Shown: piece after piece, positions 1,379 to 22,118 of the stretch | How the letters are laid out: the number at the start of each line of letters is the position of its first letter | Position numbering within the stretch: position 1 is the first letter of the stretch | Notes under the pieces: model-generated | Seen by the model: the letters and a program-made list of their open reading frames with translations, nothing else | The model's database searches: none | Told to the model about the DNA's origin: nothing | Translations under genes and position numbers: made by a program | IMG/VR virus record: IMGVR_UViG_3300042898_001927 | DNA: 64,000 bases | Source of the DNA: a virus | Taxonomy: Duplodnaviria; Heunggongvirae; Uroviricota; Caudoviricetes | Strand: one strand, 5' to 3'

Positions 1379-2176
1379 TCACTTGTTCATCATCAGTGCT
1401 GTGAAGTTGCTTGGCACTACAATAGTCTGTACCTTGCCGTTCTTAATACCTTCGGAGATATTCAGCATGGCCTGTGCTTCCATGAACTTGATAGAACTGG
1501 CGCTGTTATTAGCCAATGCTGCCATACGTCGGCTTTCAGCTTCAGCAGTCTTAACTTCAACTTCCTTCTGCTTCAATTCGTTCTTACTACGAACCAATGC
1601 ATTGGCACTTTCAACAACTGTGTCGCTAGGTACAACATTACGAATCAACACTTGACTAATCATAATAGTACCGTCCAACTTTTCCTCTGCCAAGTTGCGA
1701 ACGATTTCATCCTGGATGAACTTTTCCATTTCGCTACGCTTGTCAGCCATGTCCAATGCTTCGTACTTTCGTGCTGCCTTGTAGATAGCGTTACGAGCAT
1801 TTTGAACAATGTAGTTGTACATCACATAGGTATCACCCTTCATCTCAGCGTGGAACGCCTTGTTCTTGGTACTGTACAATTCTGCCACTTGTTGCGGATT
1901 GATGTTATAAACAACCACAGCATCCAAGTCTTTCATTGTGCTGTTATCAGCAGCCACAGGAGTCATGTCATTCAGCGCAACATTAACGTCCTTGATAGGG
2001 AATGTAAGCACATCACCGATGAATGTTTGGTTGAACGAACCAGGCAGCAACTCACCTGGCTGTACCTGTTTATCAAAACCAACTCGCACACCGACCTCAC
2101 CAGTCTCAATTCGAGTACAAGCACTAGTCAGTGCAACTGCGGCCACGACCAAACCAACTTTAATAAAACGCATCAT
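1379..2176 (-). CDS. SPFH/band-7 (prohibitin/HflC-like) lipoprotein
   Basis: 265 aa. The N-terminus MMRFIKVGLVVAAVALTSAC is a signal peptide with a lipobox Cys. The body is SPFH-like with an alternating charged coiled-coil C-terminus (EVEVKTAEAESRRMAALAN). Confidence 0.75.
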   Translation of the reverse strand: MMRFIKVGLVVAAVALTSACTRIETGEVGVRVGFDKQVQPGELLPGSFNQTFIGDVLTFPIKDVNVALNDMTPVAADNSTMKDLDAVVVYNINPQQVAELYSTKNKAFHAEMKGDTYVMYNYIVQNARNAIYKAARKYEALDMADKRSEMEKFIQDEIVRNLAEEKLDGTIMISQVLIRNVVPSDTVVESANALVRSKNELKQKEVEVKTAEAESRRMAALANNSASSIKFMEAQAMLNISEGIKNGKVQTIVVPSNFTALMMNK

Positions 2177-2272
2177 TTAAATAACTCCAGTAGAAAAAAG
2201 ATAAAAACAAACAACAAAGCCCAATGCAAAATACAAGGGCCTAAGCCAAAAGTCATTGATCATAATGATCCC

Positions 2273-2449
2273 TTAAAAAATTATCACCAATCCAAACATC
2301 AGCGCAATTGCTACTGCTGAACTGATTGTAGCATACACAGCGGCCTTTGTCAAGTCCAGGGCCTGCTTGCCTGAGAGTTTTTGGACTCCAAGAATGCCGC
2401 CCCAGACTAGAGCCGTCAATACCAAAAATAGGAAGATGACTCTGATCAT
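2273..2449 (-). CDS. Small membrane protein (58 aa, below the ORF-track cutoff)
   Basis: Hand translation gives MIRVIFLFLVLTALVWGGILGVQKLSGKQALDLTKAAVYATISSAVAIALMFGLVIIF, two predicted TM helices. It fills the gap between SPFH and rIIB on the same strand. Confidence 0.4.
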   Translation of the reverse strand: MIRVIFLFLVLTALVWGGILGVQKLSGKQALDLTKAAVYATISSAVAIALMFGLVIIF

Positions 2450-2452
2450 ATA

Positions 2453-3514
2453 TTAACCTTTAGTTGGGAAAGGCCAATCACCGCCTTGTGCTTTGAACAC
2501 GGTTCCTGGAGGAGGTGTTACCTTACCATCAGCATTGCGAGTCCAGCCGGTGGGAGTTGGCGGTACATAGCGATAGCGTTCCGGATCACCGTTTTCGCGA
2601 TCTTCCACTCCAGCTTCGTATCCAACGTCATAGGCATTGTGTTCTCTGGAACCATAGTTGTATGAATTGCTATAGTCTGCACCAGAGAAGCCGTCGCTAT
2701 AACCACGCTTATGGATACTTGAACCAACACGCACTTCTGGAACAGGCTTGGCTGCTCGAACAGTTTCGGTACCGTTAGCATTGCCCTGGACTGACTTGTT
2801 AAAAGCCTTGCCTGGTTCCACACCCAACTCACCGATAACTTCGTAGCGGCAAGCACGGCCTTTGGCCCCGTTGTAGTCGCTTGGAATTGATACAACATCG
2901 GCTGGATCAATCTTAACAATAACAGTTCGGCTATCAGTGCCACCAAAGTGATCCAAGTAACTCAAACCGCAGAAGTGTAGGCCAGCGGAACAGGTTTGAT
3001 CCTTGTTGTCATCCACTTGGTTGCGTTCCATTTCAACAACAGTACCTGGACTATTGTCCATAGTACCACTGTGAATGTCTTTGAAGTCACGGCGGACTTT
3101 CTTGTAAGCCAAGAAGTGACCATCGGGAGTGATTGGCAAACTGTTCTTTTCCAAAAAGCCGTAGAGTTCATCAACACTACGCTTGCTAGGGTTCTTCATC
3201 AAGTTATGCATGAACAGAACCATTGGATCAATAGTAAAGCCATCTTGCAACATAGTAATCATACGACTTGCCAACACACCTGCAAAAGGCTGACCCTTCC
3301 AGAACAGTTGTTCGCCCTTGACAGAGATGTTGCCAGCGCCGTAGTTCAGCACAACCTTAACTGGGTCGATAATGTTTTTAACAGTCTCCCAATCGTGTGC
3401 TTTGATAGCATCAACTACCTTTTGGTAAGTGACGTGGGTTTTAGAGATAGTGTGTGGCTTACCCTCGATAACCACGGTGACATTGCTGCCTTGAATAATA
3501 AACGGATAACTCAT
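2453..3514 (-). CDS. rIIB: rIIB-like protein
   Basis: 353 aa. It lies immediately downstream of rIIA with a 1-nt gap, in the T4 gene order. The size and C-terminal region (DNSPG...CSAGLHFC...DVVSIP.DYN.AK.R.C.YEV) are consistent with the rIIB family. Confidence 0.65.
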   Translation of the reverse strand: MSYPFIIQGSNVTVVIEGKPHTISKTHVTYQKVVDAIKAHDWETVKNIIDPVKVVLNYGAGNISVKGEQLFWKGQPFAGVLASRMITMLQDGFTIDPMVLFMHNLMKNPSKRSVDELYGFLEKNSLPITPDGHFLAYKKVRRDFKDIHSGTMDNSPGTVVEMERNQVDDNKDQTCSAGLHFCGLSYLDHFGGTDSRTVIVKIDPADVVSIPSDYNGAKGRACRYEVIGELGVEPGKAFNKSVQGNANGTETVRAAKPVPEVRVGSSIHKRGYSDGFSGADYSNSYNYGSREHNAYDVGYEAGVEDRENGDPERYRYVPPTPTGWTRNADGKVTPPPGTVFKAQGGDWPFPTKG

Positions 3515-3515
3515 T

Positions 3516-5696
3516 TTAGATTCCTTTCTTTGAATCGATCATTGAAACATATTCAGCGATATCGCTCGCTTCAACGCGGTAAGTACTCAAGGACTTCAAC
3601 AACGGGTACCTACGATTTACGTTGTCGAGTTGTGTTTGATATTTCACAATCAATGCATCTGGGCTAAGGTTAGCATTAGGTGCAAACTTGCGGAATAAGT
3701 TCTTCATATTATACTGGTTACCAGTAAATTTGTCAATACCTTTAAACTCCAAAATCAACCTGGCGTAAGGGCTGTTAAGATCGATGTCATTCAACACATC
3801 TTTGGAAAACTCCAGGATGTCTCGATTGTCCAAATTGGCCTTGACCAAACTCATCAATAACTTACTTACATCTTTGCCATTCAATTGGGCAGTAATGTGA
3901 TCTTCGAAATTGACCCAGTTCTTACGCTTCTTGATCTCTTCGATATCGCTCTTACGCACACCATAGATCTCACCGTTGAACAATCCAGGCAATGACTTAA
4001 CGTCCTCATACATTTCTTTGCCGCTTTGGTAGCCTTTAGCACTCTGCATAGTAAAGCCGCAGAGAGGAACATAGTAGTAAGTCTGTGTATCCACAAACTT
4101 GCTGGTATCACCTGCGTCACGCCAAACCATATCTTCATCACTACGACGATAACCACTGCGACTTCCGCGCTTCTCCAACTTAAGGATCGAAATGTTACGA
4201 CCCAAAGTCTCACGCTCACGTTGCTTCAGTGTAGAGGCTGCAAAGCGTCGGGCTAGCGGAGGTTCTTGGATTGCGGCAAAGAAGGCAGCAGTATCCATTA
4301 CTTTGGTCTTGTCAGCCTTGTCCAGAATCCAAATAGCACGGCTATAAACATTACAGCCAGTTTCCTTGTAGTGATAACGAGCACGTTCGGCAGCACCAGT
4401 CTTCAAATCATTGATAATAAAGTGGCTGTCAGCATCAACCTGCACACGCCATTCTTGCCAAGTGATGTAATGTCCATTGGCATTTTTAGCATGACCTGGT
4501 GCATACTCGGTAGTGCTTTTACCATTGGTAACAGTTTTGCTACCGCGATGTTGCGACAACTGTCGAATCACAATGTTGTAGTTGGCGGCCAAGTCTTCAA
4601 CTTTGAAATCAAAGCGAGTCATGTAACCGTACTGTTTGGTATTGTATGTAGGCAGGGCAGTGTCTATGGCATACTGATTTACAGCCGCAGTCCAAAGGCG
4701 GTGTTCTTTCTTCTTGAACAAGAACACAGCACGATCCCACAGGTTCTCGATGGCATCTGACTCTCGAGCAATTACAACTGTCAGGGCCGCATTGAGTTGT
4801 TCCAACTTGGCTTTGATAGCCGCAATAGTTGAAGGAATGTAACTCAAGCCTTCACGTGACGCTTGGAAGTCCAGCTCGCCGATGGCAAAGTGCATTTCCA
4901 AACCACAGCCCAATAATGCTCGTACATCTTGTTCGATGCTTTGATCAGCGGCAGGAATTTCAATAGGGTAAGCAATATTGCCCATAACAGCCACGCTGCC
5001 ACGACGACCTTCGTTTTTGTAACTATGCACACCGGGAATGATGTCACGGCTTTCGTATTCCGGAGTTTCGAATCCAAAGTCGCCGTTGCCCGACACTACT
5101 GGACGCAGAGCAAAGTGGCGATATACTTGACGTGCTTCTTGACGGAACTTGTCAAAGTCATAGCGTTCAGTAACAGCAAACTTGACTTCTACACCTGCCG
5201 GTTCGTCAGTGGCTTCTTCCATCATCTGGGCAATACTAGGCACACCAGCTTCGTTGATGAAAGCAGTGTAGATACCTTTGCGGCCGTTTTGGATAGCAGT
5301 TACTGTGAAGTTGTCAGTGTAACTAAACGGGCTTTTGGATCCCAAACCAAGGGCACCAATGAACTGGTTGCTCGCGGTTTTAGTACTTTCAAAGTAAGTG
5401 GTGTAGATGTTAGTGACTTGTTCGTGCGACAGACCAGTACCATAGTCTCGGATACTGAAGTGCGGTTCCAAGCTGTTTGGAAGATGAACGTCAAAGGGAG
5501 TGTCTTGCTTGCCAGCAGCCGCATGGCTGTCCACAGCGTTGCAACTGAGTTCGCGGATAACTGCTCGGATTTTGTTGGCATAAAGACCTGAGGAAAGAAT
5601 GGAAAACGCTTTGGCTGAGTTGCGAATACGGAATTCGCCAATCTCGCCCACGTTAGAAACAATGGCTTCGTTTTGCGGAGCGTTGTTGAGAATCAT
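3516..5696 (-). CDS. rIIA: rIIA protein (GHKL-ATPase family)
   Basis: 726 aa; T4 rIIA is 725 aa. The N-terminal Bergerat fold is present: N-box IRELSCNAVDSH and G1 box DYGTGLS. It carries the highly conserved rIIA block GALGLGSKSPFSYTDNFTVTA. Confidence 0.9.
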   Translation of the reverse strand: MILNNAPQNEAIVSNVGEIGEFRIRNSAKAFSILSSGLYANKIRAVIRELSCNAVDSHAAAGKQDTPFDVHLPNSLEPHFSIRDYGTGLSHEQVTNIYTTYFESTKTASNQFIGALGLGSKSPFSYTDNFTVTAIQNGRKGIYTAFINEAGVPSIAQMMEEATDEPAGVEVKFAVTERYDFDKFRQEARQVYRHFALRPVVSGNGDFGFETPEYESRDIIPGVHSYKNEGRRGSVAVMGNIAYPIEIPAADQSIEQDVRALLGCGLEMHFAIGELDFQASREGLSYIPSTIAAIKAKLEQLNAALTVVIARESDAIENLWDRAVFLFKKKEHRLWTAAVNQYAIDTALPTYNTKQYGYMTRFDFKVEDLAANYNIVIRQLSQHRGSKTVTNGKSTTEYAPGHAKNANGHYITWQEWRVQVDADSHFIINDLKTGAAERARYHYKETGCNVYSRAIWILDKADKTKVMDTAAFFAAIQEPPLARRFAASTLKQRERETLGRNISILKLEKRGSRSGYRRSDEDMVWRDAGDTSKFVDTQTYYYVPLCGFTMQSAKGYQSGKEMYEDVKSLPGLFNGEIYGVRKSDIEEIKKRKNWVNFEDHITAQLNGKDVSKLLMSLVKANLDNRDILEFSKDVLNDIDLNSPYARLILEFKGIDKFTGNQYNMKNLFRKFAPNANLSPDALIVKYQTQLDNVNRRYPLLKSLSTYRVEASDIAEYVSMIDSKKGI

Positions 5697-5730
5697 TTGG
5701 AACCTTTCAGTAGTGTGTCTGTATGTATAT

Positions 5731-5759
5731 ATTATAACAAGGTTTTACCTATTTGTCAA
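5731..5759 (-). promoter_or_regulatory. Sigma70-consensus early promoter for rIIA
   Basis: Read on the minus strand it is TTGACA (5754-5759), a 17-nt spacer, then TATAAT (5731-5736). The conserved downstream block ATATATACATACAGACACA follows, about 35 nt before the rIIA ATG. Confidence 0.7.
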
Positions 5760-6702
5760 GCTGATCTTGAAAAAGATTTACCACATTTTTAGATTTTTTT
5801 GTTGTTGTTTTTTTCTGTTTCGGTGCAGCATCTGGATTTCTGATTTTTTCCAAAATACCCTGCTCATATTTTTCGTTAGGAGTTGTTTGCACTCCTTCGG
5901 GCAATTGTGTGCTCAATTGTTTGTCAGCTGAAGTTACCGAGGATTCTACAGTTTGATTAATTCTTGTTTCAGCAATCTTGAAATATTCTTCAGTCATTTC
6001 AACACCAATGAAGTTTCTGCCAGTCAATTTGGCACTCACGCCACAACTACCGGATCCCATAGTAAAGTCCATAACAGTATCACCCGGGTTGCTGTATGTC
6101 ATGATCAACCAATTTAGAATATTAGTTGGCTTCTGAGTAGGATGCACTGTTTGCTGTGCAGAGAAATTTCTCGAAGCGTGAAGAATACTTTTTGGATAAC
6201 GAGTACCGTGATTCTCGCCGCCGAGGTATGGCTTTCCGTTGTTTCCAAAACCATATCCGTGACTGTTCTTACCTGTACCGTAGCCTTTTTCTTTGTCCTT
6301 GGCTTCTCGTTTGTAGGCTTCGCCTTCTTCCATAATTGGATTGTATGTGCCGCCACTTTCCTTGCTAAAGATCATAATATTTTCATGAACTTTTTGAGGA
6401 CGATATTTGGCCAAGCCTGGACTGCCGCACTTATTTTTATTCCAAATAAGCTCATGCCTGAACCAATCAATCTTACTGGCAATTACTAAACTGGTAAAAG
6501 GCTGACTACCAAAAATAACTATATTGCCTTTTGGTTTAACAATTCTTTCTAATTCAGCCCACATGGTTTTGAAGTCCAGGGTCTTGTCCCATTCAATGGT
6601 TGTAGTACCATATGGAGGATCGACACAGACCATATCTACTGATTGATCTGGAATCTTTTTAAAAGCTTCAAAGCATTGTTCGTTAAACAGAGTGATATTC
6701 AT
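5749..6702 (-). CDS. DNA amino-methyltransferase (N6-adenine or N4-cytosine), beta-class
   Basis: 317 aa. Motif IV DPPY (VCVDPPYGTT) is near the N-terminus. The AdoMet motif I (VMDFTMGSGSCGV) is near the C-terminus, giving the beta-class permuted order. There is a Lys-rich C-terminal tail. Confidence 0.85.
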   Translation of the reverse strand: MNITLFNEQCFEAFKKIPDQSVDMVCVDPPYGTTTIEWDKTLDFKTMWAELERIVKPKGNIVIFGSQPFTSLVIASKIDWFRHELIWNKNKCGSPGLAKYRPQKVHENIMIFSKESGGTYNPIMEEGEAYKREAKDKEKGYGTGKNSHGYGFGNNGKPYLGGENHGTRYPKSILHASRNFSAQQTVHPTQKPTNILNWLIMTYSNPGDTVMDFTMGSGSCGVSAKLTGRNFIGVEMTEEYFKIAETRINQTVESSVTSADKQLSTQLPEGVQTTPNEKYEQGILEKIRNPDAAPKQKKTTTKKSKNVVNLFQDQLDK

Positions 6703-7623: not shown

Positions 7624-8154
7624 TTACTTTGTACGGATCTTCAATTTTGCGTAGCAGTTTTGGACGCCGACGGCCTGACGAATAGCATCCTGTAGAGCAT
7701 CGTGCTTACTGCCTTTGGGCATATCTGGATCTACGCCCAAATCAAACAAGGTGCGTGTATCACGTAGTTGCCAAAAGTTCCAAGGTAAAGGTTTGCCTAA
7801 TTGACGATAGATATTTTCTATAATGACCAAGTCAAAGGTAGCACCGTGACTCCAGAATGTATCACAGCCCCATGCAAACTTGTGGAACTGGTCTATTGCA
7901 TCTACAAGCGGAATGCGATTGTCTGGACTAAATGCTTCCTCCATAATAGCAGGATCTTGCTTGCTCCACCACTCAATTGTGTTTGGATCAATTTCCCTGC
8001 CTAGCTTGTCTTGATCGTCAAGATCAATACGGAAGTACAGTTTGTCTCCGTAGCCATTACCATGTGGGTTAAAATGTACAGCACCTAAGGATAGGACAAC
8101 TGCGTTTGGGGAGACTGCCATAGTCTCCATATCGATCATAAGTGCTTTAGTCAT
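7624..8154 (-). CDS. DEDDh 3'-5' exonuclease (DnaQ/RNase T/T4 DexA-like)
   Basis: Exo I is MIDMETM, Exo II is HGATFDLVII and Exo III is HDALQDA. The start is set at Met-7 (8154) because the longer ORF start at 8172 lies upstream of the promoter -10. The start remains uncertain and the mRNA may be leaderless. Confidence 0.75.
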   Translation of the reverse strand: MTKALMIDMETMAVSPNAVVLSLGAVHFNPHGNGYGDKLYFRIDLDDQDKLGREIDPNTIEWWSKQDPAIMEEAFSPDNRIPLVDAIDQFHKFAWGCDTFWSHGATFDLVIIENIYRQLGKPLPWNFWQLRDTRTLFDLGVDPDMPKGSKHDALQDAIRQAVGVQNCYAKLKIRTK

Positions 8155-8160
8155 GCAACA

Positions 8161-8189
8161 ATTATAACACAACTAAAGAACTTTGTCAA
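8161..8189 (-). promoter_or_regulatory. Sigma70-consensus early promoter
   Basis: Read on the minus strand it is TTGACA (8184-8189), a 17-nt spacer, then TATAAT (8161-8166). It lies between the bS21 stop and the exonuclease gene. Confidence 0.65.
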
Positions 8190-8434
8190 TAGTTTTTCTT
8201 AGGTAATTCGTTATCGCGAAGCTTCTTTTGCCAACGGGCTTTGGCTGCTCCGTTTTTACGCTTTCGTTCTGTGGTGGGCTTTTCGTAGAACATTTTAGCA
8301 CGGACAGTTTCTAGCACTCCGCTGTCTTCGACTTTCTGTTTAAATTTTCTCAATGCCACATTCAATGGCAGATCACCTACGATAACTTTATTACCAACTG
8401 CTTTATTTTGTTTGCTCATTTTTCTTTTTATCAA
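8186..8434 (-). CDS. rpsU: Ribosomal protein bS21
   Basis: 82 aa. The block NVALRKFKQKVEDSGVLETVRAKMFYEKPTTERKRK aligns with bacterial S21 (FYEKPTTERKR is near-invariant). It has a basic C-terminus. The start may instead be Met-6 at 8419. Confidence 0.85.
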   Translation of the reverse strand: MIKRKMSKQNKAVGNKVIVGDLPLNVALRKFKQKVEDSGVLETVRAKMFYEKPTTERKRKNGAAKARWQKKLRDNELPKKNY

Positions 8435-9635
8435 AAATCATTATGGCAGGTTTGCCATCAATCGTATCTTTACTTATCCTAATCGAAGTCAATCCGCGTT
8501 CAACTAAATCTACGGCATCAAATTGATATGGCAGAAGTACTTTTTCAATAATGTTTTTCAATCCACGGGCATTGGTCTTTAATTCTTTTGCCTGACGTGC
8601 GATTTCTCTTAATGCAGGGGTATCAAAATCCAACTGGATACCGTCTAGCTCAAACATATATTGATATTGCTTGATGGGACTATTTTTTGTCTCTTGTAAT
8701 ATATTGACCAATTGGTCTTCTGATAGCTCATCGACATGAGTGATAAGTCCGAATCGTCCTACGAACTCAGGAATAAGGCCGAACTTAATAAGATCTTTAG
8801 TAGTCACATCTTGGAATACATCAGCATCTTTGTCAATATTTTCAACATTGGCGTGAAATCCTACAGACCGTGCGCCAGTCCGTTGCTTAATGATTTTATC
8901 AATTCCTACAAATGCACCACCGCATATAAACAATATACTCCTGGTGTCGATTTCCTGCATGTCGGAACCTGGATGCTTCCTTTTGCTAGACGAAGGGACT
9001 CTCATAATCGAGCCTTCGATCATTTTTAAAAGTGCCTGTTGGACACCTTCTCCACTTACATCTCGGGTAATACTTACGTTTTCACCCTTTCGACTAATCT
9101 TATCAATTTCATCAATATATACAATACCTCTTGCAGCTTTTTCTAAGTCACCATCTGCTTCAGATATCAACCGAGTAAGAATGCTTTCAACGTCGTCACC
9201 TACGTATCCTGCTTCTGTAATACCGGTTGCATCGCATATGGCAAAAGGCAAGTCCAAATATTGTGCAATTTTTCGAGCCATCATAGTTTTTCCACAACCA
9301 GTAGGCCCTAGTAACAGCACATTAGTTTTTTCTAATTCAATATCAGTGCTAGGATTATTAATCCTTTTGAAATGCTGGCTAACTGCTACGCTTAAACTTA
9401 TTTTTGCATCCTCTTGACCGATAACATATTCGTCAAGGTATTCTTTTATTTTGGCAGGATTTAATAATTTTTTCTCATTTGGAAAAGTTTTTATTTTGTT
9501 ATCTTTGAGTATGTCCTCACATAACTCAACACAGTCATTGCATATTGCGGCATTGTCGCCTACAATGAGTTTCTCAACCTCATCCTTGCTTTTCCCACAA
9601 AAATCACACTTGTGATCGCTGTCCGATTTTGTCAT
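8403..9635 (-). CDS. clpX: ClpX-like AAA+ unfoldase
   Basis: 410 aa. The N-terminal C4 zinc-binding domain is CDFCGKS...CNDCVEL. Walker A is GPTGCGKT and Walker B is IVYIDEIDKI. The ClpX-specific blocks ITRDVSGEGVQQALLKMIEG and FGLIPEFVGR are present, plus sensor-2. Confidence 0.9.
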   Translation of the reverse strand: MTKSDSDHKCDFCGKSKDEVEKLIVGDNAAICNDCVELCEDILKDNKIKTFPNEKKLLNPAKIKEYLDEYVIGQEDAKISLSVAVSQHFKRINNPSTDIELEKTNVLLLGPTGCGKTMMARKIAQYLDLPFAICDATGITEAGYVGDDVESILTRLISEADGDLEKAARGIVYIDEIDKISRKGENVSITRDVSGEGVQQALLKMIEGSIMRVPSSSKRKHPGSDMQEIDTRSILFICGGAFVGIDKIIKQRTGARSVGFHANVENIDKDADVFQDVTTKDLIKFGLIPEFVGRFGLITHVDELSEDQLVNILQETKNSPIKQYQYMFELDGIQLDFDTPALREIARQAKELKTNARGLKNIIEKVLLPYQFDAVDLVERGLTSIRISKDTIDGKPAIMIFDKKKNEQTK

Positions 9636-10017
9636 GTAGTGCTCTTTCTAAAAATGATTCAACGCTAGAAACTCTGTTCTGATTAATGTAATGATACACA
9701 GCTGATTTGCTTTCATCAGTAATACTGTAATAGGTATTTTTCTTACCTACTATATACCCGCTTAATGCACTGGTAGCATAGTTAAGTCCGTCTAAGTCTA
9801 TATACTTATACTCGCTCCTACCTAGCGCAAATAAAAACCAGGGTATATCTATTTCGTGATCATAAAAGTAAATGTTTATATGTTCGGTTAAGTTAGCGTT
9901 GGCTAGCCATTGGCTAACTTTTGATTGGTCTGCTTCGCTCAAGTGAATGAAAAGAATACTGTAAGTTTCATTTTCAAAAAAATCAGGTGGCGTTATTAAT
10001 GTTATTCTATTATCCAT
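9604..10017 (-). CDS. Hypothetical protein
   Basis: ORF track, 137 aa. It is part of the same-strand operon, with a 32-nt overlap with clpX. Confidence 0.5.
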   Translation of the reverse strand: MDNRITLITPPDFFENETYSILFIHLSEADQSKVSQWLANANLTEHINIYFYDHEIDIPWFLFALGRSEYKYIDLDGLNYATSALSGYIVGKKNTYYSITDESKSAVYHYINQNRVSSVESFLERALHDKIGQRSQV

Positions 10018-10018
10018 T

Positions 10019-11485
10019 TTATATTCTTGCTTTAACTGCTAACATGTATTCTTCGGGAATACTTTGTAATGATAGTTTTCCAGATTTCACTAATGCAATA
10101 TATTCTGCAACCTCTGGCTGAGGCGCATCATTGTAAAGATCAGGGGCGGCGCTGGCACTGGCTTCCAAATACTCTTCCTTACTGATTAATGTAGAAGTCC
10201 ATAAGCTACTGTCTTTTTGTTCTTCGTTTTGAACAAACAAAGGTTCGTCAAGGTAATCTTCAGATTCTGTTGTACTACTATTCTGTTCAGGTGCAACTGC
10301 CAATCTATCGTTCATTCTTTCTAATTCGGGTTTATATACTATTGGTTGTAAGTTCTTAAAATACCTAAAAGGTTGCAACAGATAAGGATGTTGTTCTAAT
10401 ATAGATTTTTCCGGAATATAAGTTTTAGCAACTTCGACTAATCGATCACGTTCTAATTCTTCTTCGATCTCACGTTGTCTTTGCTCTTCCAACTCTTGTC
10501 TAGCCTGTGCCAACAGATTGTTAATCTCATCTACACTAACGGTTACAGTTTCCTCTTCTATACCAGTTACAGCTTCTGGAATTACGTCTGCTACTTCTTG
10601 TGCTACAAACCCATTATGTGCAGGCTCAACATCGTCTAAATTTGTGACAGTGGGTTCCGGGGAGACTACATCAACAACCGGTCCTGATGGGCTGTCACCC
10701 TCCGCAATACGTTTTCTAAAATCCTGGAAACTGATTTGACTAGATAGTAGCAAGATAACTGCCATTGGATCAAATACTACAATAAGAAGTATGATGACCC
10801 AAGTGACTGCTTTCTCTAGTATGCCTTCGGAGGTCTCGCCATAGACGAATGCCGCAATGTATTTTATCGGCCCAACTTCCGCTTCGACCTTTCGAACGTC
10901 TGCGGCAATCGGAGCCCTTTCTTCTGTAAGGCCAGCAATAGTTTTTTGTTCGGCGGAGATCTCAGATTGAAGGCGGGCACGTTCTTTTTGTTGTGCGCGG
11001 CGTAGTCCAACTGCTTTATCTGCACCTTTTTCATCTTGACTTCGACCCATAACTTGGTCCACAGCCTCATCCATCTGTTTAAGCGCCTTGCGGTTAGCAT
11101 CTATATTTTCCTTTGCTGTTTTAATCTTCTCGTCATACACTGCAATCTTGGCCATTACATCGCCCGACACCAAACTTTGATCACTGTGGGCTTGGCTTAG
11201 GAAGCCGAAGATACCCATAGATGTTACGCCCATGAGAACGGCAATAGCAGTTAGCAAATAGATTCTAACTGACCAAGGTGCAATGCTCCAATTTTGTTTA
11301 AGCCAGAGCGTAGCGGCAATTTTGCCAACACCGAGCACAATCCCCATAATAATTACAGGAATAACCGCGGCGGCAAAGATAGCAGTAAAGCCGATGATAC
11401 TGTAGTATTCGGCAACAACGGATATAGCAAGTCCGCTAATTAATGTAAGATAGGCTATTAGTTTTTCATTTAATGTTACAGGCAT
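10019..11485 (-). CDS. Membrane protein with coiled-coil and acidic Pro/Glu-rich regions
   Basis: 488 aa. It has three N-terminal TM helices, a further TM segment (VTWVIILLIVVFDPMAVILLL) and a central KQ/ER-rich coiled coil. Confidence 0.55.
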   Translation of the reverse strand: MPVTLNEKLIAYLTLISGLAISVVAEYYSIIGFTAIFAAAVIPVIIMGIVLGVGKIAATLWLKQNWSIAPWSVRIYLLTAIAVLMGVTSMGIFGFLSQAHSDQSLVSGDVMAKIAVYDEKIKTAKENIDANRKALKQMDEAVDQVMGRSQDEKGADKAVGLRRAQQKERARLQSEISAEQKTIAGLTEERAPIAADVRKVEAEVGPIKYIAAFVYGETSEGILEKAVTWVIILLIVVFDPMAVILLLSSQISFQDFRKRIAEGDSPSGPVVDVVSPEPTVTNLDDVEPAHNGFVAQEVADVIPEAVTGIEEETVTVSVDEINNLLAQARQELEEQRQREIEEELERDRLVEVAKTYIPEKSILEQHPYLLQPFRYFKNLQPIVYKPELERMNDRLAVAPEQNSSTTESEDYLDEPLFVQNEEQKDSSLWTSTLISKEEYLEASASAAPDLYNDAPQPEVAEYIALVKSGKLSLQSIPEEYMLAVKARI

Positions 11486-11494
11486 AGATGATAT

Positions 11495-11971
11495 TTATTT
11501 GTTATATCGAGCAACATCTTTACAAAATTCAATAAACTCATCATTGTTTAGATGTTGTTTTAGACAATTAGCCTTCCATGTAATTAATTGAATATTGCCT
11601 TCGATATAACCTTTATCGCTGTCAATTCTGTCAATGGTGCAACTATTGGGATTGCACCATTTGCCTAACCAATATTGACCACCTCTGGTAAATTCAAGGT
11701 CTTCCCCTGTTAATGCACAGTAGAAATCTTGTTCAGCACCTATATCGTATAGGTAATCTAAATCAACTTCAATGGGTTGAGTATTTTCTGTACGATTTGC
11801 CGCTCTTTGTAGATTCTGTCTTAAGAATGCTAGTGTGTGTCTAACTTCTACAAGGGTTTCTTGAGCGCTCTCGTATGCTGCATCTCTTTCCCAGTAGTCT
11901 CTCTGATACGGGCCTCGCTCCTTTAAGAAATACTTATAAGTTTCAGATTCACAGACTTTAGCAATTTTCAT
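11495..11971 (-). CDS. HNH-like endonuclease-domain protein (divergent)
   Basis: 158 aa. A Cys pair precedes IDRIDSDKGYIEGNIQLITWKANC, which resembles the HNH core (HH..N..N) with the His pair replaced by DR. It may be degenerate. Confidence 0.4.
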   Translation of the reverse strand: MKIAKVCESETYKYFLKERGPYQRDYWERDAAYESAQETLVEVRHTLAFLRQNLQRAANRTENTQPIEVDLDYLYDIGAEQDFYCALTGEDLEFTRGGQYWLGKWCNPNSCTIDRIDSDKGYIEGNIQLITWKANCLKQHLNNDEFIEFCKDVARYNK

Positions 11972-11975
11972 AATA

Positions 11976-12368
11976 TTATCTCCTCATGTTAGCAATGGCC
12001 ACAGCTTCTTCGTCTGAGAAGATAGGCACAGCGTTTGACTTGTGCATTGTGCCAATACCTTTGATCTTGTCGCCAGTATAGACCTTAGCTGGTGCTAGTG
12101 CGGCAATACCTGCACCGGAGTTTAGGCTTTTGATATGATGTGTATTTGTTCTACCGACAGGTGTTGGAAGTGAATAGGTCAGCGTTTCTGCCTTCATAGC
12201 TCGCTTACGTTTCTTGTCTTCTGCCTCTACTCCCCACTTCTTTTGTAGGGCATTCCACTGCTCATCAAGCTCACGTGCCTTACGTGCTTCTTCAGCATTG
12301 CGGAATTTGACCTTGCCCTTCTTCTTGCCATTGAGACTAAGGCTAGGGTGATGCAGGTGCATTGACAT
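11976..12368 (-). CDS. Hypothetical basic protein
   Basis: ORF track, 130 aa. It has a Lys/Arg-rich N-terminus. Confidence 0.5.
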   Translation of the reverse strand: MSMHLHHPSLSLNGKKKGKVKFRNAEEARKARELDEQWNALQKKWGVEAEDKKRKRAMKAETLTYSLPTPVGRTNTHHIKSLNSGAGIAALAPAKVYTGDKIKGIGTMHKSNAVPIFSDEEAVAIANMRR

Positions 12369-12369
12369 A

Positions 12370-12702
12370 TTATGCTACTTCGAGTGCAGGGAAGTTGATA
12401 GGATTAGTTGTGTTTGAAGAGTGTGGTTCAAATGTCTTTTGAACCTTACTAGGGATACCTGTGAATCGTAGTACCTGGCCATTGGCAGCAATTTTGAGTG
12501 AGCCTGCAACTACCCAAATCTGTTTGCCCGATGCATCGATGCCTGCTAACTTTCGTACTACACCGTTGATTAGTCCAGTGGGGGTATCCTTACCCCTATT
12601 CCATTGATATGCAGTATCTTTATTAAACCAAATCTGTTCATCCTTAGATTGGGCAATGCACCAAAGTTTAATTTGGGTAAGTGTATGTTCGGCGTTGGTC
12701 AT
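12370..12702 (-). CDS. Hypothetical protein
   Basis: ORF track, 110 aa. A strong RBS (AGGAGG) lies 6 nt upstream, and a TTGCAA-N17-TATAGT promoter is upstream. Confidence 0.5.
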   Translation of the reverse strand: MTNAEHTLTQIKLWCIAQSKDEQIWFNKDTAYQWNRGKDTPTGLINGVVRKLAGIDASGKQIWVVAGSLKIAANGQVLRFTGIPSKVQKTFEPHSSNTTNPINFPALEVA

Positions 12703-12845: not shown

Positions 12846-13850
12846 TTATTTGATTTGTGTCCAAACACGCTCACGGATCTGCTTTGTTAATGCGTCCGGC
12901 AATGCTACATAGTCTAAGTCTGCGGCATCTTTCTTACCATTCTTAAATGCCCAATCAAAGAACTTTAACACTTCATCGCTGTTGGCTTTGTTAGCAGGTG
13001 TCTTATACATGATGATAAAACTTGCTGAACTTACTGGCCATGCATTAGGATTCTTTTGATCCACAATACTTAATCCCATACCAGGAACTGAGAACCAATC
13101 AGCGCCATCTGCAGCCGAGGCAAATGTTAGATCATCTGGGCTAACATACCGGCCACTCTTGTTTTGTAGTTGTAGGAATGTCATGTTGTTTTTCTTAACA
13201 TAAGCATACTCTACATAACCGATTGAACCTTTGATACGGTTCACGTTGGCCGCCACACCTTCGTTGCCTTTGCCACCCACTGAACTAGCAGCCGGCCATT
13301 TGATTGTGGCACCACGACCTGCACGTTGTAACCACTCTGGGCTGACTGTGGCAAGATAGTCTGTCCAGTTGAATGTAGTGCCTGAACCATCAGCACGGTG
13401 TACAACGGTGATTTCTGTGTTTGGCAATACTTTGCCAGGATTCAACGCCGCTAGTTTAGCATCATTCCAACGATTGATCGTGCCCAAGAACACTTCAGCC
13501 ATAACCGGGCCAGTGATGCGTAGCTCACCTGGTTTGAAACCATCCAAATTGATGACAGGCACAGTTCCGCCAATGATAGCAGGGAATTGAACCTGCCCCA
13601 TCTTGTCTAAGTTCTCGCCGCTTACTGGTGCGTCTGTGGCACCAAAGTCAACGGTCTTTGCATTAATTTGACGAATGCCACCGGATGATCCGATGCTTTG
13701 ATAGTTCATACCAGTACCTGTGGCTTTTTTGTAGCCCTCGGCCCACTTGGCATAGATCGGGAATGGGAAGGTAGCACCTGCCCCTGTAATGTCTGCGGCT
13801 TGTGCTGACACTGCTACAGCCGCAAATAGAATAGCAAATAATTTTTTCAC
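12846..13850 (-). CDS. pstS: Phosphate ABC transporter periplasmic substrate-binding protein PstS
   Basis: 334 aa. It has a signal peptide (MKKLFAILFAAVAVSAQA). The mature N-terminus ADITGAGATFPFPIYAKWAEGYK...YQSIGSSGGIRQI matches the PstS family. It has a GTG start with an AAGGAG RBS 7 nt upstream. Confidence 0.9.
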   Translation of the reverse strand: MKKLFAILFAAVAVSAQAADITGAGATFPFPIYAKWAEGYKKATGTGMNYQSIGSSGGIRQINAKTVDFGATDAPVSGENLDKMGQVQFPAIIGGTVPVINLDGFKPGELRITGPVMAEVFLGTINRWNDAKLAALNPGKVLPNTEITVVHRADGSGTTFNWTDYLATVSPEWLQRAGRGATIKWPAASSVGGKGNEGVAANVNRIKGSIGYVEYAYVKKNNMTFLQLQNKSGRYVSPDDLTFASAADGADWFSVPGMGLSIVDQKNPNAWPVSSASFIIMYKTPANKANSDEVLKFFDWAFKNGKKDAADLDYVALPDALTKQIRERVWTQIK

Positions 13851-15613: not shown

Positions 15614-15652
15614 TCAAAAAGAAACCCGCCGAAGCGGGTCCTGTTATTTTCT
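15614..15652 (-). terminator. Hairpin terminator/insulator upstream of the Pho-box promoter
   Basis: An A-run, then the hairpin acccgc-cgaa-gcgggt, then the T-rich run cctgttattttctgtt. It looks bidirectional. Confidence 0.5.
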
Positions 15653-16019
15653 GTTACGAGGTATAACTACCCTAAGCAGTGTTTAGGCTGCTAATGCGAA
15701 CTGTGAGTCGTTTGCGGTTACTTTGTTTTGCTTCTGCGACCGGGAATCCCCAATCCTAACGGCTTCTACATTGCCGGACTGTCCATTTCAATACTTGTGA
15801 CCCAATCGATATCTATGTCATCCCCACCTAAATATACATCATATACTTAGGTGGAGATGCCGGGAACTGCCCCCGGGTCTTGAATCCTTTTCTGTCTACT
15901 TCATACAGTCTTAACTTTTAACAGACTTCCCAGGGTGTGTTTGGCCTCTGCTAAGCCTGTAGGAATCTCACCTACTGCATATCTGCTACGCAAACTTGCC
16001 CCTGCGAAAGCAATTGTAT

Positions 16020-16217
16020 TTAATTAATACGAGTATAGTTCAGTACATTGCCTGAACCATATTGGGATTCGGCAATCATTTTGGCCTGCAGATCATCGTT
16101 AGCGTTTACGCGAACATGTGCAGTTTGATATTGATTGAGACGGATCCAAACTTCGTATGTGTACATTTTAAACTTTCTTTGTCGATCGAATATTTTGAGC
16201 CTGCTTACCTTTGTCAC
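16020..16217 (-). CDS. Small hypothetical protein
   Basis: The ORF-track ORF overlaps the csp 3' end by 50 nt. The real start is probably the internal Met at 16166 ([12 protein letters not shown]..., 48 aa). Confidence 0.25.
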
Positions 16218-16377
16218 CCTCAGCTAGATCAAATTCAACTTCTTGTCCAACTGCTAGTGTCCTGTACCCTTCCATTTGGATCTGACTAAAATGTGCAAAC
16301 ACATCATCAGTTGTGCCATCTGGAACGATAAATCCAAAACCTTTTGAATTATTAAACCATTTAACTTTTCCCTGCAT
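16168..16377 (-). CDS. cspA: Cold-shock protein (CspA family)
   Basis: 69 aa. It carries the RNP1 motif KGFGFI, the RNP2-like VFAHFS, and the N-terminal [15 protein letters not shown]. Confidence 0.9.
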
Positions 16378-18278: not shown

Positions 18279-19379
18279 TTATAGATCTGGTAATTCTTCG
18301 TACTCAACTGCATCGCTCATAACGCCGATGACGTAGTTTGTACTTTCATTTTCTTGTAGAGCAGTCTGCTTCTTGTTGATATTAACATGTTTGTTGAACC
18401 AAGGAATAGGACTAAATTTAGGATGCTCCCCTTGGTACTTAATACCAATTTCCTTTAAACGTGTAAATGCAGTATAATCGACAAAGTCGCTAAGGATGGC
18501 AGCATTAAGTCCGATAACTGGACCTAACTTAAACAAGTAGGTTGCCCATTCTTTCTCTTCACGGATAACATCCATGTACATTGCATACACTTCTTCAGCA
18601 CATTCATCGACGATGGCTGCAAATCTAGGATCGTCTTTGACTACATTGTTGATTAGCCAAGCAGTCCATTCTGCGTGTAGTAACTCATCTTGTAAAATCA
18701 AACTGATGATGTTGCCATTGCCAATGTAGATCTTGTTCTCGACCATTGCCAACGATGTAGCAAAGGATACCATAAAGCGGAATGCTTCGAGGGCATAGCT
18801 GGCGTTCAAGGCTAACCAGATAGCCTTGATGTGTTCATGCTCGCTAATTTCCTCACCGACTTCCTTGCGGCAATTAATTCGATGTAGTGTTTCGTAGTAC
18901 ATACCGACACTACTGGCCATACTTACGATTGGCTCGATGTCATGAATCTTGTTAAATTCTTCTTTAGGTACGCCATAGACATTACGAATAATGTGACTGT
19001 AAGATTTTGAGTGAATATTTGTTTCAAAGAAACTCCAATTAGATACTAGTGCTTCTAGTTCCGGGATTGAGATAACAGGACTGAATACCTGATTAGGTGC
19101 TCGTCCTTGAATACTGTCCAAGGCTGTTTGACGCAGTAGGTTGCTGGTAAAGATATGTTTTACTGCATCGCTAGATTCTTTATGATCCATTTTGTCTTTG
19201 GTAAGACTGATTTCTTCTGGGACCCAAAAGAAGCCACGTGCTAGTTCTTCATACTTGGCAATCTTAGGATACTTAACTTCTTCAAATCGTTGCACAGTGA
19301 CAGGACCAGCAGGATCTAAAAACATTTTTCGTTTTAGATAGTTTGTTTGCTTACTTAAATTATATTGTTCTTTACTCAT
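18279..19379 (-). CDS. nrdB: Ribonucleotide reductase class Ia small subunit
   Basis: 366 aa. It is ferritin-like with di-iron ligands (FFWVPEE...; paired EXXH helices) and has the C-terminal acidic tail used for docking R1. Confidence 0.9.
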   Translation of the reverse strand: MSKEQYNLSKQTNYLKRKMFLDPAGPVTVQRFEEVKYPKIAKYEELARGFFWVPEEISLTKDKMDHKESSDAVKHIFTSNLLRQTALDSIQGRAPNQVFSPVISIPELEALVSNWSFFETNIHSKSYSHIIRNVYGVPKEEFNKIHDIEPIVSMASSVGMYYETLHRINCRKEVGEEISEHEHIKAIWLALNASYALEAFRFMVSFATSLAMVENKIYIGNGNIISLILQDELLHAEWTAWLINNVVKDDPRFAAIVDECAEEVYAMYMDVIREEKEWATYLFKLGPVIGLNAAILSDFVDYTAFTRLKEIGIKYQGEHPKFSPIPWFNKHVNINKKQTALQENESTNYVIGVMSDAVEYEELPDL

Positions 19380-19758
19380 TTGTGTGTTTCTTTCTATAGT
19401 CTTCTACTGCGGCTTTAATTGCATCTTCGGCTAGAATACTGCAATGTATCTTAACTGGGGGCAATGCTAGTTCTTCAGCAATTTGGCTATTACGAATGTG
19501 ACTAGCATCATCCACATGCATTCCTTTAACCATCTCAGTGACAAGACTGGAGCTGGCGATTGCTGAACCACATCCATATGTCTTGAAACGAGCATCTCTA
19601 ATAATACCATTTTCATCTACCTTTATCTGTAGTTTCATTACATCACCGCAGGCAGGGGCACCGACCATTCCAGTACCTACTCCTTCTTCGTCTTTAGCAA
19701 AGCTACCTACGTTACGAGGATTCTCATAGTGGTCAATAACTTTATCTGAATAGGCCAT
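19372..19758 (-). CDS. iscU: IscU/NifU-type Fe-S cluster scaffold protein
   Basis: 128 aa. The three conserved Cys are present (GAPACGDVMKL, KTYGCGSAIASS, HCSILAEDAIKAA). The LPPVK motif is also present. The gene overlaps nrdA and nrdB at both ends. Confidence 0.85.
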   Translation of the reverse strand: MAYSDKVIDHYENPRNVGSFAKDEEGVGTGMVGAPACGDVMKLQIKVDENGIIRDARFKTYGCGSAIASSSLVTEMVKGMHVDDASHIRNSQIAEELALPPVKIHCSILAEDAIKAAVEDYRKKHTNE

Positions 19759-22118
19759 TATAGTTTACATGCCTCGCAGTCGGCATCGTCGTACAGAGTT
19801 ACATTATCAACAGCATTAACATATGATGGAGGAGCAACTACTAATGTATTGGTAGTTGTTACACCTTCCTTAGCGCCGACTTTGTTAATTAAGCTATAGT
19901 ATATAGTCTTGATACCCCATTTGTAAGCCAGCATTAAGTTTTTGGCAATTAAAGTTCCGGGGACCTTGCGATCCTTTTGTGGATCTAAACTGGTAAAGTG
20001 TGCAGGATTGTAGAATGTGTTAGTGCTCAAACTTTGATCAATGTAGGCTGCAAGTACTGCGGCAGTTTTCAAATAATCAACACAGTCCTTTTGATCCCAC
20101 ATCAACTGATAACGATTCTTTAGACGTTTGTATTCTGGTACTACCTGTACAAAAGACCCTGCCTTGGATTCCTTAACACTGATAAGTTCCATCGGCATTT
20201 CAATACCGTTGGTACTGTTAAGCACGACCGAACTAGATTCAACTGGAGCAACTGCCATTAAGGTAGCGTTACGAATACCATACTTTTTCATCATCGCACG
20301 TAGAGGTTCCCAATCCATGCTTGGTGTAAAGTCTGTTAGTTCATCTACTCCTTTATTTCTACGCTCCCAAGGAAACACTCCCTTACCATAATAAGTATGC
20401 TGACTACGTCCGCATGGCCCACGTTCTTGGGCAAGCTCGACACTTGTTTCAGTTAGGTAGTATGCTTGATGTTCCATCCAACGTTTGACTTCGGCAAGAG
20501 CATCCTTCTCGCCGTATTTAAAACTACGCTTGGCATGCCAGTAGGCCAAGTTAGTAATGCCAACACCTAACGGTTCAAATTCACTATTGGCCATCTTTGA
20601 CTGTACGCTTAAGAAATCTTGATATGATAACAAGTTACTCAAGCTACGGACCAACACACGGCAGGCTTTACGCATCTCTTGCGGATTGCGGAACGCACCC
20701 CAGTTGATTGACCCAAGAGTGCAAAGAGCAATTCGTCCCTCTGCATCTTCAATTCTCTGGAAAGGACGGGTGGGTAAAAGTATCTCTTGGCATAGGTTTG
20801 ATTGATATATTGGATCCAAGGTTGTATCAAACGGGCCCTGGTTGATAACGTTGTCGATGTTGACAAAATATATGCGCCCAGTGTCAGTGCGCTCTTTAAG
20901 TATTCCAGCTTTGAATATCGCATCCGCTGATACAACTTTCTTTTTCTTTGTCTTATCTTGCTCATACTGTAGATACAATTTTTCAAACAGGCCGCTATCA
21001 CGATAGTAGGCTTCGTACAAGTCCGGAACTTCTGCAGGGTCAAACAAGCTCATCATTTCGCCATTCTTATAGCGGTTCCAGAACATCTTGCTGACTACTA
21101 CTGAATAGTCCATTTGACGCACACGAGTTTCTTCAGTACCTTGGTTGTTCTTTAGAACAATAAGATCTTCGAACTGATAATGCCAGACGGGAAAAGTCAC
21201 CGTACAACTTGCATTACGGATTCCACCTTGGCTGCAACTGCGAAGGTCTGCGAACCACTTTTTCAAGAAAGGGATCATTCCAGTATGCTTGATCTCACCG
21301 TTGCGAATTGGTGCACCTAACGGTCTGATTCTGCCTATTTCAAGGCCGATTCCGGCTCGTTTTGAAGCATATTTGGCCATCATTTCGCCTGCTGCGAAGA
21401 TACTATCCAGTGTGTCATCACTGCTGATCAATACACATGAACTGAATTGTTTTGTTGTGGTTCCTAGGCCGGCGAGAACAGGTGTAGCTAATGTGAAGTG
21501 TCCGTCACTAGCTGACTCGTAGTATTCCTTAACCCACTTTAATCTTTTATCTTTAGGTTCGTTATGAAACGCTGTTGCTGCGGCAATTGCATAGCGAACC
21601 TGAGGTGTTTCGTAGATTTGACCAGTAGCACGGTTCTGTACCAGATACTTTTCTGCTAACTGTGCAATGGCTGCATAGGTATAGTTTTCATCCTTGGCAT
21701 GATCGATGAATAGATCAATGATATCCCATTCTTCTTTAGAGTACCAGTCTAGCAGTTCGCTAGTGTACATGCCTAGATCTACATTCTTTTTAACAATATC
21801 ATACAATGCTGGAGGATCATAATCACCATAGACCTCTTTGCGTAACATGCTAACTTTTTGACGACCTGCTACATACTGATAATTGACATTATTAATTTCT
21901 GGATTTTCAGATTCGTCAATTAAATCTACCATGGCCTTGAGCAAGAGCTCGTCTATGGTTTCGGTAGTCATACCGTCGTGGAGTTCAATTTGAGCTTTAA
22001 TCTCAATCATCGAAGGACTTACTCCATCGATACCCCTGCAGCCGTAAGCTACTTGTCTCTGTATTTTTGCGATATCTAACGGAACGCGATGTCCATTACG
22101 CTTGACCACTGTGATCAT
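19758..22118 (-). CDS. nrdA: Ribonucleotide reductase class Ia large subunit
   Basis: 786 aa. The N-terminal ATP-cone is VVKRNGHRVPLDIAKIQ. The catalytic region and the C-terminal CEAC (CX2C) shuttle pair are present. Confidence 0.95.
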   Translation of the reverse strand: MITVVKRNGHRVPLDIAKIQRQVAYGCRGIDGVSPSMIEIKAQIELHDGMTTETIDELLLKAMVDLIDESENPEINNVNYQYVAGRQKVSMLRKEVYGDYDPPALYDIVKKNVDLGMYTSELLDWYSKEEWDIIDLFIDHAKDENYTYAAIAQLAEKYLVQNRATGQIYETPQVRYAIAAATAFHNEPKDKRLKWVKEYYESASDGHFTLATPVLAGLGTTTKQFSSCVLISSDDTLDSIFAAGEMMAKYASKRAGIGLEIGRIRPLGAPIRNGEIKHTGMIPFLKKWFADLRSCSQGGIRNASCTVTFPVWHYQFEDLIVLKNNQGTEETRVRQMDYSVVVSKMFWNRYKNGEMMSLFDPAEVPDLYEAYYRDSGLFEKLYLQYEQDKTKKKKVVSADAIFKAGILKERTDTGRIYFVNIDNVINQGPFDTTLDPIYQSNLCQEILLPTRPFQRIEDAEGRIALCTLGSINWGAFRNPQEMRKACRVLVRSLSNLLSYQDFLSVQSKMANSEFEPLGVGITNLAYWHAKRSFKYGEKDALAEVKRWMEHQAYYLTETSVELAQERGPCGRSQHTYYGKGVFPWERRNKGVDELTDFTPSMDWEPLRAMMKKYGIRNATLMAVAPVESSSVVLNSTNGIEMPMELISVKESKAGSFVQVVPEYKRLKNRYQLMWDQKDCVDYLKTAAVLAAYIDQSLSTNTFYNPAHFTSLDPQKDRKVPGTLIAKNLMLAYKWGIKTIYYSLINKVGAKEGVTTTNTLVVAPPSYVNAVDNVTLYDDADCEACKL

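Follow-up and report, generated by a model that had tools for sequence, protein, structure and literature searches.

An apparently functional, phage-specific ClpX encoded in overlap with ribosomal protein bS21 in large uncultured freshwater phages

Introduction

ClpX unfoldases have been recorded in several large bacteriophages, including Atu_ph07, AP-J-162, Phosso, phage G and the Lak phages (PMC6102473, PMC7824862, PMC11242549), and jumbo phages of the Atu_ph07 type encode further Clp proteins, ClpP and ClpS among them, elsewhere in their genomes (PMC6102473; PMC11242549). Phage homologs of ribosomal protein bS21 are also on record, in Pelagibacter phage HTVC008M and in many uncultured phages (PMC6375957, PMC9723584), with incorporation into the 30S subunit shown experimentally only for HTVC008M bS21 in E. 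coli (PMC6375957). When the neighbors of bS21 were surveyed in 900 phages that encode it, two "ATP-dependent Clp protease" families appeared among the 20 most frequent, without further analysis (PMC9723584), and transfer-messenger RNA (tmRNA) and SmpB have been reported in huge phages (PMC7162821). In bacteria, a C-terminal LAA is an established degron, recognized by the pore and RKH loops of ClpX (PMC10638403). Phage ClpX, ClpP, bS21 and tmRNA are each listed in surveys of large phages, none of them with a tested role. Here, we analyze a clpX gene (8403..9635) found in a 64,000-nt stretch of the uncultured virus record IMGVR_UViG_3300042898_001927 (hereafter, the window), where it overlaps a gene encoding bS21. 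All window genes lie on the minus strand, as do all the window features for which coordinates are given below.

The evidence assembled here makes it probable, though far from certain, that this gene encodes a functional phage ClpX, and that this ClpX belongs to a tmRNA/ClpXP system that the phage itself carries and expresses together with bS21 from its early region. Large phages were already known to have each of the components; the overlap of clpX with the bS21 gene (rpsU) and the four-part combination are new variations on them. A limited literature search found no paper describing a conserved clpX-rpsU overlap, or the joint presence of tmRNA, ClpX, ClpP and bS21 in this clade.

Results

The window clpX starts at an ATG and encodes a 410-aa AAA+ unfoldase that combines a C4 zinc domain with GYVG and RKH pore loops and a VGF ClpP-docking loop. 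The protein exceeds the cut-offs of two NCBIfam ClpX equivalogs (NF003745, 536.1 bits against 359; TIGR00382, 509.4 bits against 370.75) and matches the zf-C4_ClpX (PF06689; 58.9 bits, residues 9-44), AAA_2 (105.5 bits) and ClpB_D2-small (C-terminal domain; 23.3 bits) models of Pfam. Its closest solved structures are ClpX chains, with an E-value of 8e-125 for Neisseria meningitidis ClpX. Pairwise alignment with the ClpX of E. coli K-12 (taken from NC_000913.3) yields 49.8% identity over 408 columns and pairs zinc cysteines C10, C13, C32 and C35 of the window protein with C14, C17, C36 and C39 of E. coli. The same alignment locates Walker A (GPTGCGKT) and Walker B (YIDEIDK) motifs, an arginine finger (EFVGR) and a sensor-2 motif (NARGLK), together with pore-1 (GYVG), pore-2 (RDVSGEGV) and RKH loops that all align with those of E. 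coli ClpX. The docking tripeptide, VGF, aligns with I268-G269-F270 (IGF) of E. coli and fits the [LIV]-G-[FL] pattern. The original prediction, derived from the window alone, had proposed a complete ClpX with a zinc-binding N-terminal domain, Walker A and B motifs and sensors, and the equivalog scores and full motif set confirm it; the pore loops and the ClpP-binding loop, the latter in its VGF form, are all present in the alignment. The window gene thus looks like a genuine, complete and active member of the ClpX family.

Hundreds of ClpX sequences 76-100% identical to that of the window are available in protein databases, originating from JGI, ENA and Logan metagenomes and located on contigs of up to 367 kb; JGI samples 3300042888 and 3300059473 are among those with an identical ClpX. 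No deposited phage ClpX was found to be more than 60% identical to it, the window as a whole had no nucleotide match in the phage collection searched and no cultured relative was found; the window rIIA protein is 30% identical to that of PA5oct-like jumbo phages. Among 185,579 species genomes, the nearest cellular ClpX sequences are at most 54% identical and are spread over the Firmicutes, Proteobacteria, Cyanobacteria, Acidobacteria and other groups, a distribution that led us to reject a recent capture of clpX from a host. In a neighbor-joining tree with 100 bootstraps, based on an alignment of 153 ClpX sequences, the phage sequences constitute a monophyletic clade (100/100 bootstraps) that is deeply diverged from all cellular ClpX. 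The Kimura distance between the clade and cellular ClpX has a minimum of 0.70 and a mean of 0.85, compared to a mean of 0.48 between cellular sequences from different phyla.

Conservation within this clade was assessed on 127 ClpX sequences. The zinc cysteines are kept, the Walker A, Walker B, arginine finger and sensor-2 motifs are invariant or nearly so, EAGYVGD is found in all 127 sequences and RKHP is conserved. The docking tripeptide is VGF in 114 members and IGF in the other 13; among 81 cellular ClpX sampled, VGF occurs once, the remainder displaying IGF, MGF or LGF. The docking-loop region spans 37 aa, within the cellular range of 36-46 aa, and the invariance of [V/I]GF in a loop whose other residues vary argues for selection for ClpP binding. 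Synonymous sites in the clade clpX genes are saturated, with nonsynonymous divergence (dN) of 0.03-0.3 and dN/dS values of 0.07 or less wherever computable, a pattern indicative of purifying selection. On sequence evidence, the clade is therefore best described as a ClpX lineage of long standing, specific to phages and maintained in working order in large (up to ~370 kb) uncultured freshwater phages.

The gene that follows clpX is an rpsU-like gene (8186..8419) recognized by Pfam, NCBIfam and PHROG (21469). It encodes a 77-aa bS21, extended at its N terminus by ~10 aa of basic character (MSKQNKAVGNK), that scores 51 bits against Ribosomal_S21 (PF01165; cut-off 27) and 51.5 bits against TIGR00030 (cut-off 28.95), and shares with E. 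coli S21 the FYEKPTTERKR core of the proteobacterial type. The two genes overlap by 17 nt (8403..8419): the ATG of S21 lies in the +1 frame within the last codons of clpX, so that the clpX stop codon (8405-8403) falls inside the S21 open reading frame (ORF); the sequence before this ATG is A-rich (GATAAAAAGAAAAATG) and lacks a Shine-Dalgarno core. Such cores can be identified upstream of 23 of 52 other ORFs of the window. The position of the clpX stop codon inside the S21 ORF had been correctly anticipated, and the overlap of 32 nt then proposed has to be shortened to 17 nt. The longer overlap would place the S21 start at a TTG (8434) that derives from the conserved ClpX motif I-F-D and is absent in many relatives, the ATG being universal; furthermore, on contigs with an identical ClpX, gene callers set the S21 start at ATG 8419 and its length at 77 aa.

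The conservation of this junction was examined in the window, three metagenome loci and 80 IMG/VR loci with ClpX 63-88% identical to that of the window; all counts out of 80 relatives given below refer to the latter. S21 is adjacent to clpX in 76 of the 80 IMG/VR loci; of the other four, two end with the contig and two lack S21 downstream. In one of the 76, S21 is located ~690 nt farther on. Wherever S21 adjoins clpX (79 loci), an ATG that aligns with MSKQNK... is contained in the final codons of clpX. The overlap ranges from 8 to 35 nt over these loci, with 17 nt (32 loci) and 14 nt (22 loci) the commonest lengths, and it always equals 2 modulo 3 (79/79), which fixes the frame of S21 relative to clpX, again with no Shine-Dalgarno sequence. 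A conserved overlap of this kind is what translational coupling through termination-reinitiation should leave, and suggests that S21 is translated by this route. Coupled expression of the two genes had been proposed at the outset: the overlap is real and behaves as coupling predicts in 79 of 79 loci, and a dependence of S21 translation on clpX is what we infer from it. A ClpX-S21 fusion generated by -1 frameshifting on the A-rich stretch was considered and rejected, because S21 occupies the +1 frame and the heptamer in the zero frame would not appear to be a canonical slippery site.

At a distance of 6 kb upstream of clpX, the window encodes a two-piece (permuted) tmRNA of the betaproteobacterial type (15620..15946), which was detected with Rfam (RF01850 beta_tmRNA, 92.1 bits, gathering threshold 84; RF04321 tmRNA_permuted, 107.4 bits, gathering threshold 47) and received no call from ARAGORN. 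Its tag frame (15715-15683) encodes ANDSQFALAA followed by a stop codon. Of 84 clade loci searched with blastn, at least 47 have a tmRNA on the clpX strand, 3-8 kb upstream of that gene, and Rfam confirmed it in four of the seven relatives tested. The tags of the relatives all end in LAA or MAA (e.g., ANDSQFALAA, ANDAYFGEDRLAA, ANASNDEVWALAA), and a tmRNA with a tag ending in ALAA provides an obvious substrate class for ClpX. Just upstream of the tmRNA lies a CspA-like cold-shock gene of 69 aa (16168-16377), the equivalent of which is annotated in relatives as PF00313 CSD, with a TTGACG-N17-TATAAT promoter at ~16426. In the relatives, genes for ClpS (17/80) and HSP20 (20/80) are found ~8.5 kb downstream of clpX; in loci L008 and L009, for example, HSP20 and ClpS genes lie at 20499-21215, ~10 kb downstream of clpX. 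L008 also contains a Polynucleobacter-1 RNA on the plus strand (18533-18679; Rfam, 99 bits). This RNA, the HSP20 and ClpS genes, the beta-type tmRNA and a Porin_4 gene hint at a freshwater betaproteobacterial host, such as Polynucleobacter.

As originally noted, no clpP can be recognized in the window, where tblastn with E. coli ClpP returned a best E-value of 2 and Pfam and PHROG scans of mid-sized ORFs were negative. Extending the search beyond the window gave a mixed outcome: clpP was found neither in the next 10 kb, past the low end of the window, nor within 10 kb on either side of clpX in the 80 relatives, but it is present on at least five related contigs that also carry the clade clpX. 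IMG/VR was searched with a ClpP alignment built from cellular loci, then with the ClpP thus found as query and, lastly, with two motif scans. The initial match was obtained on 3300025466_001309 (70.5 kb; ClpX locus L087), and the use of that ClpP as query returned at least 126 close relatives. Both genes are found on this contig and on 3300042302_000394 (207.8 kb), 3300027734_002590 (101.7 kb), 3300032240_000688 (66.2 kb) and 3300032240_001991 (326.7 kb). On 3300042302_000394, ClpX and S21 are 86% and 93.5% identical to those of the window, and on 3300032240_001991 ClpX is 67% identical and S21 overlaps clpX. The phage ClpP scores 255.6 bits against Pfam CLP_protease, conserves the catalytic Ser (GQACSMG), His (MIHQP) and Asp, and belongs to a clade that is abundant and highly conserved in metagenomes. 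In the three contigs mapped, clpX and clpP share a strand and clpP is found 61-89 kb downstream, a distance that would put the equivalent position beyond the low end of the window; clpP is not within a head-assembly module. The lineage thus appears to encode a complete but split ClpXP, a conclusion that is extended to the window phage by extrapolation from its relatives.

The clpX and S21 genes close a series of seven ORFs (ORF110, ORF130, ORF158, ORF488, ORF137, clpX and S21) that runs from 12702 to 8186 with gaps of 1-9 nt or overlaps. The operon probably starts where a terminator-like hairpin (12799-12784) gives way to a promoter-like site (12761-12733; TTGCAA-17-TATAGT), the latter defined by its match to the consensus only. 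At the other end, a perfect TTGACA-N17-TATAAT promoter (8161..8189) begins at the S21 stop codon; as judged from its sequence, it delimits the clpX-S21 unit on the 3' side and serves the gene that comes next. This gene (7624..8154) encodes an Rv2179c-like 3'-5' exoribonuclease and is the downstream neighbor in 71/80 relatives; the -10 box ends ~7 nt before its ATG (8154-8189), and its mRNA may be leaderless. On its coding strand, the window has eight sequences that deviate from the sigma-70 promoter consensus at one position at most, all of them within 1.3-25 kb, and the T4-type late motif TATAAATA is found on that strand solely at 28-57 kb, among tail-fiber and baseplate genes. By analogy with T4, the location of the clpX-S21 unit in an early region, as first predicted, is a reasonable inference, given the near-consensus sigma-70 promoters nearby and the absence of T4-type late motifs.

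Among the genes upstream of clpX in this unit, ORF137 (9604..10017) overlaps the clpX start by 32 nt and immediately precedes clpX in 80/80 relatives. It has no Pfam or PHROG match, and its structural model (predicted local distance difference test score of 87.5) has a flavodoxin-like fold resembling nucleoside-2-deoxyribosyltransferases, with further matches to TIR and receiver-type domains; it is an orphan protein confined to this phage group. ORF137 was also considered as a divergent ClpP or a ClpX adaptor and discarded, its predicted fold being neither that of ClpP nor that of SspB or ClpS. ORF488 (10019..11485), a predicted membrane or coiled-coil protein with a weak DUF4407 match, is the next upstream neighbor in 73/80 relatives. 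ORF158 (11495..11971) is HNH/endonuclease VII-like and, because it is present in only 5/80 relatives, it is probably a mobile, homing-endonuclease-like insertion in the clpX operon. The unit opens with ORF110 and ORF130 (11976..12702), found in 50/80 and 76/80 relatives, respectively, the latter matching phrog_27048.

Elsewhere in the window, auxiliary and early genes for Band_7, rIIB and rIIA proteins, for a PstS-like phosphate-binding protein and for the large and small subunits of a class I ribonucleotide reductase are located at 1379-5696, 12846-13850 and 18279-22118, and a NifU/IscU-like protein is encoded at 19372-19758. The segment from 28000 to 63784 is occupied by a long tail-fiber/baseplate-like array that includes proteins of 2285, 1448 and 1122 aa. 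Beyond position 1 of the window, the flanking sequence (L178, 3458-11828) encodes AhpC, a GDSL lipase, a CMD protein and a DUF2828 protein, followed by NAD genes and an AAA ATPase. The NAD genes comprise a NadR-like NMN adenylyltransferase/NUDIX protein and NAMPT, a NAD salvage pair also seen in some large phages.

Discussion

From the integrity and conservation of the phage ClpX, the order of its neighboring genes and the co-occurrence of clpP and tmRNA in the lineage, a mechanism can be outlined in which clpX, the second-to-last gene of a seven-gene unit, would be transcribed from host-type promoters in the early region. Ribosomes finishing clpX would reinitiate on the bS21 gene across the 17-nt overlap, leading to the joint synthesis of both proteins. 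ClpX would most likely partner with a ClpP encoded elsewhere in the phage genome, and the resulting ClpXP would degrade proteins tagged with ...ALAA by the phage's own tmRNA, as well as other ClpX substrates. A plausible purpose for such a system would be to clear host ribosomes stalled at damaged host mRNAs and to destroy and recycle their tagged products, with the phage bS21 re-tuning translation initiation. The conserved exoribonuclease gene beside S21 is compatible with this purpose, but proves nothing. Several observations weigh against the outlined mechanism. The clpP gene was found neither in the 64-kb window nor in the 10 kb beyond its low end, and for the window phage it is extrapolated from relatives with ClpX 67-86% identical. 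In addition, phage clpX and clpP are unlinked, whereas 75 of 80 cellular loci have clpP immediately before clpX, and a joint function of the phage proteins is not guaranteed. Neither the window nor the fetched phage loci yielded an SmpB, and the tmRNA would require either host SmpB or an unseen gene. Lastly, the A-rich leader could permit independent initiation on S21.

The original prediction had put forward two other roles for ClpX, namely the redirection of host ClpP and ClpP-independent remodeling. Both rested on the absence of clpP, and are weakened by its presence on at least five clade contigs. In the former, phage ClpX would dock on host ClpP and redirect host proteolysis, either in a phage devoid of its own clpP or before phage ClpP accumulates. 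The failure to locate clpP in the window, in the 10 kb downstream of it or in the vicinity of clpX in 80 relatives agrees with this proposal, as does a docking tripeptide that fits the general ClpP-docking motif, in a form also seen in one of 81 cellular ClpX sampled. However, at least five sufficiently long clade contigs do have their own clpP, and the abundance and high conservation of the phage ClpP clade make dependence on host ClpP unnecessary, leaving redirection as an unlikely explanation. ClpX activity without ClpP is well established in the disassembly of the Mu transpososome, and this precedent lends plausibility to a stand-alone unfoldase that would remodel replication or transposition-type complexes, ribosomes or free S21. 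The linkage of clpX to S21 and ORF137, instead of clpP, is consistent with such a role, but the docking tripeptide is invariant in the clade even though other residues of the loop vary, and clpP co-occurs in the lineage, so that a wholly ClpP-independent function seems very unlikely. Because the docking tripeptide appears to be under selection and the lineage has its own ClpP, both proposals lose their main argument, and a phage ClpXP pair is more likely than either of them.

The significance of the clpX-S21 overlap itself can be read in two opposite ways. On the one hand, it could reflect compact packing only, with unrelated host-takeover genes that are neighbors by chance and in which the lysine-rich tail of ClpX and the likewise lysine-rich S21 extension share A-rich DNA. 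Overlaps are indeed common in the operon, as illustrated by the 32 nt shared by ORF137 and clpX, the length of the clpX-S21 overlap varies between 8 and 35 nt, and S21 is missing downstream of clpX in 2/80 relatives and displaced by ~690 nt in another. Nonetheless, adjacency is maintained in 76/80 loci across ClpX identities of 63-100%, and all 79 adjacent cases overlap in a fixed frame with no Shine-Dalgarno sequence before S21, which renders mere packing highly improbable. On the other hand, the overlap could denote a direct partnership within a ribosome-takeover circuit in which exoribonuclease, tmRNA, ClpXP and bS21 act in series. The adjoining 3'-5' exoribonuclease would truncate host mRNAs, and the phage tmRNA would rescue the ribosomes stalled on them. 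The tagged host peptides would then be destroyed by phage ClpXP, which might also attack the bS21 of the host or further components of initiation, and phage bS21, made in step with ClpX, would displace its host counterpart and favor phage messages. This circuit is quite unlikely as a whole; were it true, Atu_ph07-like phages, with their independent pairing of clpX and the gene for initiation factor IF3, would offer another example of a link between ClpX and 30S initiation factors.

The reading favored here, in which tmRNA and ClpXP are phage-borne and expressed along with bS21, would amount to a virus carrying a trans-translation-plus-proteolysis pathway almost whole. In an abundant and well-sampled clade, documented by hundreds of sequences from lake metagenomes, four parts previously listed one by one co-occur, and two of them are joined by a conserved overlap. 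This turns the vague idea of phages tinkering with proteostasis and translation into specific, testable questions: whether phage ClpX pairs with phage ClpP, whether the pair degrades proteins bearing the tag of the phage itself and whether bS21 output is tied to the translation of ClpX. The module is coherent, abundant and experimentally tractable, but it contains nothing categorically new.

One close parallel is the bacterial ClpXP-SsrA system, as known from E. coli. The window ClpX has the same domain order, ~50% identity to the E. coli protein and all of its catalytic, pore, RKH and docking motifs; the phage tag ends in ALAA, like cellular tags, and the ClpP of the relatives has a Ser-His-Asp triad. 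In contrast to the bacterial arrangement, with clpP next to clpX, the phage clpP lies ~60-90 kb away where mapped, and phage clpX overlaps rpsU instead. Furthermore, the phage ClpX sits on a long, separate branch and no SmpB is seen in the fetched phage loci. Among phages, Bacillus phage G encodes both ClpP and ClpX (gp257/gp258), as does the clade studied here, but its genes follow the bacterial clpP-clpX order, its ClpX is nearer to that of the Firmicutes and no S21 adjoins it (PMC7824862). No translation genes were found beside clpX in Lak and LR756511 phages.

A further parallel, in gene order, is provided by Agrobacterium phage Atu_ph07 (gp2), Sinorhizobium phage Phosso and AP-J-162, in which a full-length phage ClpX gene is also followed directly by the gene for a 30S initiation protein. 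In these phages, however, the neighbor is IF3 and there is no overlap, in contrast with the overlapping bS21 gene of the window. The IF3 gene lies at 9296-9799 of the Atu_ph07 locus (L011) and at 5299-5820 of the Phosso locus (L174); this is another pairing, which may be independent, between a phage ClpX and a protein of 30S initiation. The ClpX proteins of the Atu_ph07 group are only ~51% identical to that of the window, their RKH loop is not conserved as RKH and the docking site of Atu_ph07 is FGF. They group weakly with the clade studied here (53/100 bootstraps), which makes a common ancestry uncertain. Homologs of ORF137 were sought upstream of clpX in Atu_ph07 and Phosso and discarded (hhalign probability below 1%), the upstream genes being unrelated.

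With regard to bS21, the basic N-terminal extension of the window protein and its presence in large aquatic phages are shared with previously described phage homologs, such as those of HTVC008M and those reported by Chen et al. (2022) and Al-Shayeb et al. (2020) (PMC6375957, PMC9723584, PMC7162821). In the Bacteroidetes-infecting lake phages of Chen et al., however, bS21 has its gene on the other strand, amid capsid and terminase genes, and is expressed late, whereas in the window the bS21 gene lies in the putative early region and overlaps clpX.

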